This document shows positions 13,231 through 46,395 of a DNA stretch of 52,143 nt, piece after piece (within the stretch, counting starts at the first letter, position 1; every line of letters starts with the position of its first letter). The position numbers were made by a program, and so were the translations under genes. Source of the DNA: Chiloscyllium plagiosum (lineage: Eukaryota); contig NC_057718.1 in NCBI RefSeq assembly GCF_004010195.1, positions 61,486,095 through 61,538,237 on the forward strand, given 5' to 3'. Under the pieces are notes generated by a model. That model made no database searches, was not told the origin of the DNA, and saw only the letters and a program-made list of their open reading frames with translations.

Positions 13231-14235
13231 TGTTATGATGTTGGAGACATGTATTGTACCTTTAAGAGAGAGTGAATGCTGTTCTGAACTGAGAGATTAT
13301 AAGCACCTATGTCATATGACAAAACAACAGTCTCAGAGTGTACTGGAAAATTGAAACTATGTAACATTTGGCTGTGAAATAGATACCCGAGTTGGCTGCT
13401 GTTTTGACAACAATTCAAATTTAACCAGTTTAAACAATGCTCCAGAATACTAAAAGCTGAATAATGTGTTGCTGGAAAAGTGCAGCAGGTCAGGCAGCAT
13501 CCAAGAAGCAGGAGAATCGACGTTTCAGGCATAAGCGCTTCTTCAGGAAGGGCTTATGCATGAAGAAGGGCTTATGCCTGAAACATCGATTCTCCTGCTC
13601 CTTGGATGCTGCCTGACCTGTTGCGCTTTTCCAGCAACACATTTTTCAGCTCTGATCTCCAGCATCTGCAGTCCTCACTTTCTCCCAGAATGCTAAAACT
13701 CAATTGAGTTTGGATTAATTGTTTTGCCAACTTCAAACCAATGAGATGATCTGATTTCAGGGCTATAAAAAAGGCAGGCATGTTGAAAATCAGACAGAGC
13801 AACTGCCATCATCACAGACCCAAGAAATTAGGAAATACTCCCTCAAAATACCCTTTCAAATGAAACATATTTGCGTAAAGAGAAAGGAGACAAGCCAGGG
13901 AAGTCTTCAACCGGAAGGAAGCAGACACCAAAGACAACAGCCGCTGTATGATTTTAAAATTAAGCTGATGTATTTTGATAAGTGTTTTATTGGAACAGTA
14001 TATTGCTATAGAGTTGGAGGCAGACAATAAGCAGTTAAGAGAAAGGGGGCTTAGAGTTGTAAATAGTTGTTTAATGTTCACTTTTAGAGTTTTAAAAAAA
14101 ATTGATGTATTTGCTTTAAATAGTGAAATCTGGGGAGTTCTCTGTTACTCATACTTTAACAGATTACAAGGTGAGGTGAGCCTTTCTGGGTGTTTGGGTT
14201 TAATTAACAGAAGGGTTCACCACTATGTCGTAATA
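13231..14235 (+). repeat. 5' LTR of the Gmr1-type element
   Basis: Starts TGTTA; 13956-14235 aligns with 18891-19168; followed by the PBS-like sequence. Confidence 0.9.
13456..13684. mobile_element. Palindromic Penelope-derived (pLTR) insert with hammerhead-like core
   Basis: Inverted arms; TGAAGAAGGGCTTATGCCTGAAAC; TSD CCAGAAT(A/G)CTAAAA at 13442-13455 and 13685-13698; same family as 44227-44450. Confidence 0.85.
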
Positions 14236-26800: not shown

Positions 26801-27986
26801 CAGCAAAGGATGACCATGAAACCGATAAAGAGAGATAAAAGCTAAGACAGACATAAGGTAAAACTGTAAAAGCTTATTTAACGCTACGTGAAGAAAAGAT
26901 GACCAAGGACGAATGTGGGTCAATTGCAGGTGAGGACAAAAGAATTTATAATGGAAAACAGGGAACTAATGGAAAACTAAACAAATACATTGTGCCTCCT
27001 TCATGCAGGAAGATACAAAAAATCTCCCAGAAATATTAAGGAATTAAGGGATTGAAATAAATTAATATTTTTAAGGAGATGTGAATTGAAAAATCAACTG
27101 GATTGAAGGTTAATAAATCTGGACCAAATAAGTTTCATCTAAGACCAGATGAACTGCAGTCAAAAATGTTGAAGGAGGAGGCTATGAACATAATGGATAC
27201 ATTAGTGGCTATCAGGTGAGATGCCCAAGGAGTTGAGGGTAGCTAATGTCGTGCCTTTACTTAATAAAGGCTAAAAGGAGAAGTCTGGAAACTATCGACT
27301 TGTGAGATTGACGGTAAGTTGTCTGAAAGGATTCTGAGAGATAGGATTTACATGCGTTTGGAGAGGCAAGGACTGATTAGGATAGTCAGTATGACTTTGT
27401 GCATGGGAAGTCATGTCTGTGACGATGCTGCTCCTTTAACAAGGTTATGTTGCCTTTAGCTTTTTTTTTGTCAGAGAAGTTGTAAAAGTAGCAATTCTAA
27501 AAAGTCTAGTTTTGAAGCGTTTTAGGGCCAGTTTAATTATAGCTAACAGATACTGCCTCTGGAAAAAGGTTTTCAAGTTTTAAAAAAGACACTTGCACAA
27601 TGAAAGGGAAATGGCCAGTTCTTCCAGCTCAGCTTTTCTCTGGTTTGGTTTGATTTGGTTTCGTTTCAGCTGTCCAGCTGTTCACTGAAAGCAGTCAGTC
27701 AGTTTTGAGGCTGTTAGTCCAAGAAACAGCTCCAGGGAAGAAGGTGTTCTGTGCTGAATCTCTCTGCCATCTTTCTCTCTCCTGTCAGAACCTGAGTCTG
27801 GTTTTTCTTTTTTGGCAAAGGGTGTTTATGGTGATTGTAGCAAGTATTTGGAACAGCATCATCAAGTTGGGGTATTCTGTTGGGTTTTCAGGTAAGTTAA
27901 GTTATTCTATTTTCTGTTCTCTTTTGTTTGTGTTTCATTTAGTAATCTTGAAATAAATTCTGTTTTTTTCAAACTAAACGGCATGT

Positions 27987-28076
27987 GCCTTGTTGGTCTA
28001 GGGGCATGATTCTCGCTTAGGGTCTTCTACTCCGCAGACCAGCGACAGATCCCTGTTTCAAATCCCTGCCGAGCCC
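27987..28076 (+). tRNA. tRNA-Pro(AGG) pseudogene with an 18-nt intron-like insert at the canonical 37/38 site
   Basis: 62 of 72 exon positions match vertebrate tRNA-Pro-AGG as recalled; anticodon AGG 28019-28021; insert TCTTCTACTCCGCAGACC 28023-28040; substitutions disrupt the T-stem, B box and acceptor stem. Confidence 0.88.
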
Positions 28077-28122
28077 ACATTTCTTAACTTGACTTGTGCA
28101 AGAATGCCCGTCTAATTTTAGA

Positions 28123-28442
28123 GGACAGCACAGTGGCTCAGTGGTTAGCACTGCTGCCTCACAACGCCATGGTCCCAAGTTTGATTGCAGCCTTGGGAGA
28201 CTGTCTGTGTGGAGTTTGCACATTCTCCTCATGTCTGCGTGGGTTCCCTCCGGGTGCTCCAGTTTCCTCCCACAGTCCAAAGATGTGCAGGTCAGGTGAA
28301 TTGGCCATGTTAAATTGCCCATAGTGTTAGGTGCATTAGTCAAAGGGAAATGGGTCTGGGTGGGATACTCTTTGGAGGGTCGGTGTGGACTGGTTGGGCC
28401 GAAGGGCCTGTTTCCACACTGTAGGGAATCTAATCTAATCTA
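28123..28442 (+). mobile_element. HE1-type V-SINE, full length
   Basis: tRNA head, V-domain, CR1-like tail and TAATC repeats. Confidence 0.93.
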
Positions 28443-30236
28443 AGTGGTTTGATCAGCTGCATCACTCCTGGAATAGCCACTGTATACCTGCTCAAAACAA
28501 CTAGCAAAGTTAGGGTCCAGGCTACTTTTTTGAAATGTTTTGAGGGGTTCTGGCCTGCTTCATAACATGTCTCACAAATTTGATTGAGTTTGTTTGAGGA
28601 CCTAACCATAAAGGCTGATGAGGGCAGAGCAGTAGACTTTAATAAAGCCTTTGACAAAGTTCTGCATGGCAGACTATTGAGTAAAGTGTTTAAAAAGGTG
28701 TTTAGTATGCTTGTCTTCATTGCTCAGACCATTGAGTACAGGAAATGGGCCAACATGTTGAGGTTATACAGGACAATGGTGAGGCCACTTTTCAAGTGCT
28801 ATGTACAGTTCTGGTCACTTTGCTATAGGAAGGATATTATTAAATTGGAGGGAGGGTTCAGAAAAGATTTACCAGGTTGCTGCAGGGACTGGAGGGTTTG
28901 AGTTATAAGGAGAGGTTGGATAGGCTGGTACTTTCTTCACTGGAGCATTGGAGGGTGAGGGGTGATCTTATAAAATCGTGAAGGGCATAGATAAAGTGAA
29001 TAGCAAAGACCTTTATCTGGAGTGTGTAGGGGCATATTTTAAAGGTGAAAGGAGAATGTTTTAAAAAGAAAATGAGGTGCAACTTTTTTTATACAGAGAA
29101 TGGTAAGTGTGTAAAAGAAAAAGGTTAGAGGGATATGGCCAAATGCAGGCAAGTGAGACTAGTTTAGTTGAGAAATGTGGTCAGTATGACTGAGTTGAAC
29201 CAAAGGGTCTGTTTCCATGCTGTATCACTCTATGGCATGAAATTGCAAAGAGAACCCCAGTGTTTAAGAAGGGAGACAAAGTGAAGAACTATATACCTCA
29301 GATAAAAATCTCATATAACTGGAAAATCCTATCTCGGTACTGTCAAAAGGATCAATTCCTACCCTTTAGTCATCGGATAAAAATGCATGCTGTATTTGTA
29401 ATTGCAGATCTTTCTATTGGCTGTCTTAGTGAAAGTTGCATAGGCAGATGATCATGGCAGCAGATTGCTATGCAGCAAATGGCACTGCTCTCTTCATGAC
29501 TTATTGGAGAAGCACATTCTTACCAAAGATCTCATGTGATCTGGATTGCCCTCATAACCTATGTGTCAGGATCACAAAAGACACAGAAGACTCATAATTG
29601 TGGCTTAATGTTTCATTTACTCCATCTGCTTCTCTCTTGTTTCTTCATCATTATAATGTTCAAGGATATTGTCTTAATGGCTCTGGAGAAACTTTCTTTT
29701 TGCAGACCGCAGAGAGGTCATAACCTCCCAGTCACTTCACACACCTGAAGCTGTCAACAGGATGCCCAGGTTTCAGAGGATAGAATTTCCAGAGAGCCTC
29801 AGCCCAACTGCAGATAATACCAGTAAAAGAAGAACTTCAAATTGAGAAACCCTTCACTGCAGTCTTTCTCAGTTAACCCTGATATTGCTAAGTCTTATAA
29901 GTTGCACGCTACCTGAGTCCAAATAAAGATGCAGTGTCATTTGTTCCTAAATATTTAAATAAGACCATTTGTATTTTTGCCCGTTGGATCACAGGATAAG
30001 GAATAGCTGAGCCTTTGAGATAATGTTTGGAGTTCCATATGATATGTACAGATTAAGTAATTGTCCCAATTTTATTTGCATCATTTGTTGTGTTTCTTCT
30101 CTGCTTCCTTCCAATAATAAAAGCTCACACATGTGGAGTTAAACCGTTTTTAATTTGAAAAATGAAAGAGAAAATAGGGCATTTATAATTCAGAAATTAC
30201 CGAGGTTAAAATTGGGTAATCAAAGGAAAGCATGTC

Positions 30237-44226: not shown

Positions 44227-44450
44227 GGAGAAAGTGAGGACTGCAGATGCTGGAGATCAGAGCTGAAAATGTGTTGCTGGAAAAGCACAGCAGGTCAGGC
44301 AGCATTCAAGGAACAGGAGAATCGACGTTATGGGCATAAGCCCATCTTCAGGAATTCCTGAAGAAGGGCTTATGCCCGAAACGTCAATTCTCTTGTTCCT
44401 TGGATGCTGCCTGACCTGCTGCGCTTTTCCAGCAACACATTTTCAGCTCC
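44227..44450. mobile_element. Palindromic Penelope-derived insert with hammerhead-like core
   Basis: About 100-bp arms centred on GAATTC (44352-44357); CTGAAGA-A-GGGC-TTAT-GCCC-GAAAC-GTC at 44358-44385; perfect 15-bp TSD GATCCCTCTCTTATA (44212-44226, 44451-44465). Confidence 0.9.
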
Positions 44451-46395
44451 GATCCCTCTCTTATATGCTAGTACCAATTCACTCACTGGCTTTAGACATC
44501 AGAATTGGCTTATGTAAAGGAAATTGGAGTATTAAAATCATCTAAATCTTTGACTGAGTGGGTGGGTTTGGTGCCATTTCTAACTCTGCTCGATTCCCGC
44601 ACTCTATGCTTTAAAATTTAATTTGGTGATACTATAATTGGGCTATGCTGATGAAAAGATCGTTTGTTGCTGAAATTGAACAGCATTTGTCAGAGAGCAT
44701 CATTATCCATTCAAATAAACCAAAGAGTTTTCTGTGAGAATCAGTTAAGTCCAAGACAGTCGTACAGCAGAATATAGAACAGCTGACAGCCTTCAACTCA
44801 AAAGTAACACTATGAACTACAGCAAACTTTTCTTATGTTTTTGTGACAACAAATACCATTTAATGACAATGACATTCATTTGAAAGCAAGTTGAGGAACC
44901 AACCTAGTCATAAACACATTATTGTGTCTCTAACAACACCTGTGGAAGAGTGGAGTATTAATCAATAGTTGGGGTCTTTTCATTCAATCATGTTATCAAC
45001 ATGTGTGTGCAGTGACAAACTTATTTGGGGCCCAGTGTCAGCAGCTATCAGTCTCTAATATGGAAGCTTAAAACAACCCCATATTTACTGGATGTTATGT
45101 TGCAAACGAGTCAGCAAAATAATTCTAGTCCATTCCTTCCAATTTTGGAGGACCACTTGAAAATGTCAACTAGATTTTGTTTTTTGGCCAAGCCACAATT
45201 ACTTATATACTGGAACAGTAGACAATTGTCAGATAGTATGATACATGTGCTCTGCAAGTTGTTTCTTAGTTTATTATTTGTTGGTGTTTCATCCTGGACC
45301 ATTTTCTTTTACTGGTGGCTAGCCATGACCTTCCACTCTCAGAGACAGAAGCCAGGTCCCAGTCAACCTCAGCCAGAACAGGAGTTGCACTTTTGGCGTT
45401 ATTCTGAACCTCATGCCAGCTAACGGAACTAAGCAGATCCCAAATGATCAGATACACCATTGTAACAGAAGTACCTTGTGCCCATTTTGCAGCAATTGTT
45501 TTTGCCATTTGAATTGATAGATAGATTGATACAATTACTTCACTTCAGGCCAAGAAAATGATCACAGCTAGGAAGATGGTTTGATTCAACAAACCTTAGG
45601 CCCTTTTAAATCATTCACTGCACATTGTCACTGGAATGGGATAATCGCATCTACGCTGCACATTTGTAATCAAAAGATGAAACATTTTAATAGCTGATAG
45701 ATTTTATGATCTATTGAAAAAGAAAAGTTGGATGTGATGTTTTAAAATTAAATTGCCAATTACTTCTTTGAGGGAAATATTGGGTCAGGACCCGTCATCC
45801 AAGTGATTCTTGGGTGTCAGACTGAGACTGAGACTGATCTTGCCCTTTTTATGCACTGTCACTCATCCAGTACGTTTGGTACAACAAGCATAATGTATTA
45901 GACAGCACTTAGCAGTTAGCAGTTAGGTTGAGAAACAATATTCTCAGTCTCTGATTAATATACTATATGCAGTTCAATGGAAGAGGGAATTACATTCTGG
46001 ATTACCTGGTATAGTTTTGATGGACTATGCTGCTTTATAGGTAGCAATATTACATGATCATACAATGTGAAATCCTTATATTCCTTCAAGAAGTTAAATA
46101 GTCATCAATCCACCAACTTTGTAACTGAACAACGCTTTCCACCAGCTTACATGTAACAAAAAGTATGTTTTGAGAAGATGGGTGAAAGAGTTGACATATC
46201 GAATGTCATGGAAGTGAAGAATGGATTTTTATATTTAGTTTTGGCATCCAATACTTCAGGGTCAGTGTGGAATAACTTAGTCCCAAGGTAAAGTTGGGTA
46301 ACAACTCTGTTGTGCAAGTAGCATTCTTTAATCCCAAAGTCAAAATAAATGTTCCCTGTGGTCCCAATGTCAACATTTGCATTCCTCATACATCG

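Follow-up and report, generated by a model that had tools for sequence, protein, structure and literature searches.

The insert at positions 27978 to 28443 of the DNA analysed here is very likely a dead chimeric retrocopy, in which an unspliced pre-tRNA-Pro was joined to an HE1 SINE through a CR1-type template jump, and not a member of a dimeric SINE family. We show that many tRNA-Pro genes of the genome in question, together forming a large family, contain 18 extra nucleotides at position 37/38, and that fusions of this kind arose many times independently; no daughter family was seen.

Anatomy of the insert

We analysed a stretch of 52,143 nucleotides from Chiloscyllium plagiosum (GCF_004010195.1, NC_057718.1, 61,486,095 to 61,538,237, forward strand), which is referred to as the window in its full length. 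An initial annotation had described a leader, a tRNA-Pro(AGG) with an 18-nt insert, a trailer and a full HE1 element between two parts of an LTR, and direct reading confirmed this arrangement. Its extents were adjusted slightly: the insert ends at 28443, one base further than first given, and the trailer, initially set at 46 nt, is 43 nt long by count and 44-46 nt if the start of HE1 (28120/28121) is placed later. The features are as follows.

27414-27417 and 28568-28571: TGTC duplication flanking the host LTR
27418..27977, + strand: left part of the solo LTR-like host element; starts with TG and sits inside a CR1-type LINE fragment
27974..27977, + strand: CTAA, left copy; possible 4-bp duplication or tail/target microhomology
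27978..27986, + strand: pre-tRNA 5' leader, 9 nt; its GCATGT-type end is common to other dispersed copies
27987..28022, + strand: tRNA-Pro(AGG) 5' exon, positions 1-37; anticodon AGG
28023..28040, + strand: 18-nt intron/insert at 37/38, after G37; A at intron position -3
28041..28076, + strand: tRNA-Pro 3' exon, positions 38-73; without CCA, T arm decayed
28077..28119, + strand: 3' trailer; matches cluster-gene trailers and ends AATTTT (T4 run 28116-28119)
28120..28443, + strand: full-length HE1-type SINE; its 3' end is of the CR1 type, and its (ATCTA)n tail ends CTAA at 28443
28444..28567, + strand: right part of the solo LTR-like host element; ends with CA

The whole host element thus spans 27418-28567 (TG...CA) and belongs to a family with about 2,150 candidates across the genome. 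The nesting order at 27414-28571 is CR1-type LINE, solo LTR with its 4-bp duplication, chimera; an uninterrupted version of the CR1 stretch around the host LTR is visible at locus L113. We take the SINE to be of the HE1 type, following the initial annotation. It is 93.9% identical to the majority of the fetched HE1 copies, and its 3' end is common to LINE 3' ends within the window. HE1 is described as a V-SINE of sharks and rays with HER1 as its paired LINE (PMC3747384). Elsewhere in the window, at 13455-13651 and 44255-44454, there are two elements that are related to each other and almost perfectly palindromic, each arm being 91-100 nt long.

The tRNA part is decayed. Ten of its 72 exon positions are unlike an intronless Pro(AGG) gene of the same genome, 11 of the 17 stem pairs tested are kept, and the copy was missed by ARAGORN at default settings and by Rfam. 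A DNA search with the stretch from leader to trailer nevertheless found similarity at 39 other places at E <= 1e-19 among the 40 of 188 candidates that were scored. Intact relatives are called by ARAGORN as tRNA-Pro with an intron (37,18) and reach 43.5-48.7 bits with Rfam RF00005. The resemblance of the window copy to a tRNA is not due to chance.

The left target reads ...AAACTAA up to 27977. In all nine other copies of the host LTR that were fetched, the insertion point is empty (...AAACTAA|GTGG-like), a comparison that covers the window copy only. Because these nine copies are empty there, the tRNA and the SINE entered at one place, as had been proposed in the initial annotation. The same comparison ruled out that the tRNA is a normal part of the host LTR. 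No LTR bases were lost or gained at the insertion point beyond CTAA. The suggestion that CTAA is a short target-site duplication fared less well: the four bases are indeed duplicated around the insert, but they overlap the tail repeat of HE1, and the words shared by the two ends of 27 chimeras were no longer than those of mismatched pairs (4.96 vs. 4.75, sd 0.20), so that no excess of target-site duplications over chance was found around the whole unit in these 27 chimeras. A 4-bp duplication is therefore not diagnostic here, while the empty site is.

A family of tRNA-Pro genes with an insert

Searching the genome with exact motifs of equal length gave 73 matches to the intron form vs. 7 to the intronless form. 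These matches, together with the ARAGORN (37,18) calls, bear out the earlier suggestion that intron-bearing tRNA-Pro genes exist in this lineage. The fetched loci held 75 distinct tRNA-Pro copies, namely 8 intronless copies with unique flanks, 28 cluster-type copies whose flanks are shared, and a remainder of 39. From this remainder, a cluster copy cut by the end of its locus was dropped, which left 38 dispersed copies. All three Pro anticodons are present among the intron-bearing forms.

The cluster genes lie on contig C44 and on many unplaced contigs, beside genes of the initiator Met, Trp, Asn, Ser and Glu types and at a spacing of 500 nt or more. The cluster as a whole is a partly decayed multi-gene tRNA array (C44:8.99-9.97 Mb and the unplaced contigs of loci L148-L186). 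In 385 kb of cluster DNA, each intron call made by ARAGORN falls on a body that is tRNA-Pro by sequence, whatever anticodon was printed, and no histone-like frames were found in the same 385 kb. Many of the cluster copies are damaged; exons identical to those of an intronless gene occur in one of 27 (L093), and most AGG-type copies carry a G18C change. By eye, a stretch resembling a D arm or A box was seen about 15-45 nt upstream of three TGG-type cluster genes (L015, L019, L030), perhaps the remnant of a further tRNA gene.

Neither intron-bearing tRNA-Pro in sharks nor chimeras of pre-tRNA and HE1 came up in a literature search. Shark tRNA loci have been described in a published survey as expanded, clustered and often intron-containing; the portion of its text at hand names neither an isotype nor chimeras, and its figure or supplements may name proline. 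The mouse isodecoders listed with introns are Arg-TCT, Ile-TAT, Leu-CAA and Tyr-GTA, and proline is absent from that list (PMC11472047). In yeast, tRNA-Pro(UGG) bears an intron, and the genes of one isodecoder tend to be either all with or all without one, mixed sets being unusual (PMC4090602). As far as these accounts go, the shark insert resembles the introns of the mammalian families and of yeast tRNA-Pro(UGG) in being short, located at 37/38, and having a purine at -3 that faces U32. Two features set it apart from the mouse list and from the tendency stated in PMC4090602: it occurs with each of the three Pro anticodons, and there are also intronless genes whose exons are the same.

Sequence evidence on possible splicing of the insert

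The position of the insert, one base 3' of the anticodon, and its short length agree with the ARAGORN call i(37,18), and 27 cluster copies share a layout of 36+18+36. Mean identity over these 27 copies is 0.90 for the exons, a value inflated since the copies were found by exon motifs, 0.56 for the intron, and 0.64 and 0.78 for the flanks; the way in which copies were found biases all of these values. A purine at intron position -3, facing U32, is present in 25 of the 27 cluster copies and in 47 of 47 copies that could be parsed (19 others were not); intron columns 1, 2, 4 and -4 are conserved as much as -3. When ten genes were folded with the tRNA body held, a pair between U32 and the intron together with a 3-nt bulge was predicted in three, all of the TGG type (P 0.70-0.86). 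The pair was not predicted in the other seven, which are AGG- or CGG-type genes (P 0.00-0.07), nor in the window copy.

Two chimeras bear on processing. L133 (C2:96742712) consists of an intronless Pro(CGG) followed by HE1, and its leader and trailer match the intron family in 13 of 15 letters, compared with 9 of 15 for the best of the eight intronless genes. It is likely the retrocopy of a spliced but untrimmed precursor, although this is a single case for which a lost intronless source is possible. Since its G46A mark also occurs in L134, whose flanks look like those of an intronless gene, the case for L133 rests on its flanks. In L086 (C4:128436303), HE1 follows the 5' exon and the whole 18-nt intron, and the junction coincides with the 3' splice site or lies beside it, with an ambiguity of 2-4 letters. 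A motif search for spliced copies of the G18C type gave no exact match. Judged from these sequences, the insert of the TGG-type genes is probably spliced out, and splicing of the AGG-type insert appears less likely than that.

Chimera partners and junctions

Searching the genome for source loci and further chimeras, as the initial annotation had proposed, led to the tRNA cluster and to at least 25 direct joins with HE1. Among the 38 dispersed intron-bearing copies, which are a sample picked by similarity and not a census, 25 abut the 5' part of HE1, three reach HE1 via other pieces and three abut CR1-type pieces; two are inverted or rearranged against HE1, and five have no identified partner. 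An RVT_1 domain was found behind L113. Upstream of the tRNA, the match to cluster-gene DNA extends over 0-16 nt in the 38 dispersed copies, as opposed to at least 100 nt in 13 of the 28 cluster copies. Leader, intron and trailer are all present in the window insert, in line with the earlier proposal that an unprocessed pre-tRNA was carried by the HE1 tail.

By eye, 14 of the 25 HE1 junctions are located at the first T run behind C73, six at the second and five elsewhere. Of 21 Pro-linked HE1 copies, 13 have a T run in the 13 nt that precede the element, vs. 4 of 33 other HE1 copies. The 5' parts of the chimeras mostly end where the ends of primary Pol III transcripts are expected. A DNA search with the junction-spanning sequence returned mostly plain HE1, along with two further chimeras (L049 and L050). 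HE1 preceded by TTTTA was found in five copies, two of which have a tRNA directly upstream (Asp; Pro).

Some inserts are serial. L129 (C37:14.77 Mb) reads Pro, Lys and HE1; L132 (C100177) reads Pro, Ser, a third tRNA-like piece and HE1; and L125 (C19:2.31 Mb) reads Ile, Pro and HE1. Their spacers of about 25 nt or less are far below the spacing of cluster genes, each unit ends at a T run, and the next one mostly begins with a short leader. Other captured tRNAs were observed in L134 (intronless Pro, a Leu-like tRNA and a CR1-like piece), L145 (Asp and HE1), L111 (Leu and HE1), L010 (Arg and HE1) and L138 (intronless Pro and HE1). In L017/L121 and L120, the pre-tRNA-Pro is inverted against the 5' end of HE1 or lies between an inverted HE1 and a 3' half of HE1. 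L083 (C2:128226319) holds a pre-tRNA-Pro without HE1, flanked by direct repeats of 13-14 nt (by eye), like a tailless retrocopy made by L1.

Origin of the chimeras

For pairs of the HE1/HER1 type, it is established that the LINE enzyme primes on the LINE-derived tail of the SINE. In the mechanism that we propose, germ-line Pol III transcription of the intron-bearing tRNA-Pro genes would start a few bases before +1 and stop at the first T run or at the second. A CR1-type reverse transcriptase would prime on the HE1 tail, copy the HE1 RNA to its 5' end, and then jump end to end onto the U-rich 3' end of a pre-tRNA. Such a jump to a further Pol III RNA may sometimes have been repeated two or three times. 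As a less secure step, the insert would be a true TSEN intron, spliced by at least the TGG-type genes. The T4 run that ends the window trailer is likely a Pol III terminator. The TTTT before HE1, which had been raised as a caveat since it could stop Pol III, does stand there, but a better reading is that it marks where the captured transcript ended at its 3' side.

The main mechanistic rival is that the RNAs were ligated before reverse transcription, so that a single pass sufficed to copy the fused RNA, a route reportedly proposed for U6/L1. Junctions at RNA ends are a pattern that, from DNA alone, ligation shares with template jumping, and L086 joins HE1 at the end of the intron, where a splicing cut would leave a ligatable end, although 2-4 letters of this junction are ambiguous. 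RtcB, however, does not join 5' triphosphate to 3' OH ends, which are those expected on primary Pol III RNAs; moreover, the HE1 halves are mostly full length and the serial units retain short leaders. We regard ligation as improbable compared with the template jump.

The initial annotation had favored a nascent dimeric SINE, formed by Pol III read-through or a template switch. In the sense of an amplifying family, an HE1 element behind one intron-bearing tRNA-Pro gene would have been reached by Pol III read-through, and the fused RNA would have served as master. A sequence ending in ...TCTTA directly before HE1 is in fact common to six chimeras joined at the first T run (L009, L022, L025, L100, L115, L118), and a weak TTTCT stop might be read through. 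But neither the anticodon (TGG, CGG) nor the leader nor the HE1 subfamily is the same throughout these six, and the 25 direct HE1 joins in general vary in anticodon, junction and HE1 subfamily. The read-through part of the proposal found no source, as HE1 was present downstream or in the trailer of none of the 26 readable cluster genes. In the window, the T4 run at 28116-28119 precedes HE1, which makes a dimeric SINE with one Pol III transcript spanning both units unlikely. Read-through would be expected to stop at this run, in keeping with the absence of daughter copies.

A tree of 80 HE1 rows, 30 of them labelled as chimeras, required 24 label changes vs. 24.5 after shuffling; its resolution is weak, with six starred branches that force at least five changes, and a small sub-master is possible among the unresolved branches. 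The 30 labelled rows included four joins other than intron-bearing Pro (two second HE1 copies, L133 and L138); for the AU test these four were counted with the other HE1 rows. A single clade for the HE1 halves of the remaining 26 chimeras was rejected (AU p = 2.4e-5). A single master chimera is rejected by the scattered HE1 halves and this test, and the idea of an amplifying family finds no support. HE1 without a tRNA head is abundant in the genome, and an abundant headless SINE is the mark by which Kojima 2015 (PMC4494074) separates independent template switches from a SINE family. The window chimera falls on the side of independent chimeras by that test, and a nascent dimeric SINE is very improbable. 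The chimeras fit the class of template-switch retrocopies: the window copy entered as a single unit, the 5' parts mostly stop at transcript ends, the chimeras are independent of each other, and headless HE1 is abundant.

Two separate insertions at one spot, i.e. a tailless pre-tRNA retrocopy followed by HE1 at its T-rich end, are hardly credible: pre-tRNA copies without HE1 do exist (L003, L011, L083, L102) and T-rich DNA also precedes 4 of 33 other HE1 copies, but the LTR bases are unchanged beyond CTAA, the trailer sequence does not resume behind the HE1 tail, and the same orientation with end-to-end joins recurs in 25 cases.

Comparison with known systems

The chimeras that come closest are those of U6 with Mon-1 and with L2 in platypus and with AnolisSINE2 in anole; triple chimeras are also described (Doucet et al. 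2015, PMC4476161). In both cases a Pol III RNA is placed in front of a piece of SINE or LINE that a stringent LINE mobilizes, target-site duplications are short or absent, and template switching is invoked there as well. Unlike the U6 chimeras in that account, the RNA captured in the shark is a pre-tRNA that still has its leader, intron and trailer and was thus unprocessed, several different pre-tRNAs can be chained, and the proposed enzyme is of the CR1 type (PMC4476161). Both shark partners are mostly full length, whereas platypus U6 is mostly 5' truncated (PMC4476161).

Mammalian genomes contain tailless retropseudogenes of pre-tRNAs (Schmitz et al. 2004, as cited in PMC4476161). Like the shark copies, these derive from tRNA precursors that a LINE enzyme copied into the genome. 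They are, according to the same source, made by L1 and stand alone, whereas most shark copies ride on an HE1/CR1 3' end, with L083 resembling the stand-alone type. A gained RNA-gene head is also known from SINEs such as SINEU, and tRNA+7SL and 5S+tRNA SINEs are cited together with it (Kojima 2015, PMC4494074). There, too, RNA-gene sequence was added 5' of a SINE, probably by a template switch; in contrast to the master copies and subfamilies described there, none were seen for the shark chimeras.

Implications

The window insert itself is dead, and its value is that of a marker for a vertebrate tRNA-Pro family with an intron at the canonical site. The presence of the intron beside intronless genes of the same exons offers a rare natural case for the gain and the relevance of tRNA introns. 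In addition, a stringent CR1/SINE system would repeatedly capture unprocessed Pol III RNAs, which is the proposed birth step of composite SINEs, here with no family taking off. The chimeras also provide evidence at the DNA level for the sites at which germ-line transcription of tRNA genes starts and stops.

We give an even chance to a broader reading, in which a working tRNA-Pro intron was gained in sharks and spread over three anticodons in a germ-line cluster, where it outnumbers the intronless form by about 10:1, and in which serial CR1 jumps turned the HE1 chimeras into a fossil record, with dates, of the states through which a pre-tRNA is processed. If this is true, the states preserved would include unspliced precursors (the window copy), a precursor whose 3' splice site had been cut (L086) and one that was spliced but untrimmed (L133).
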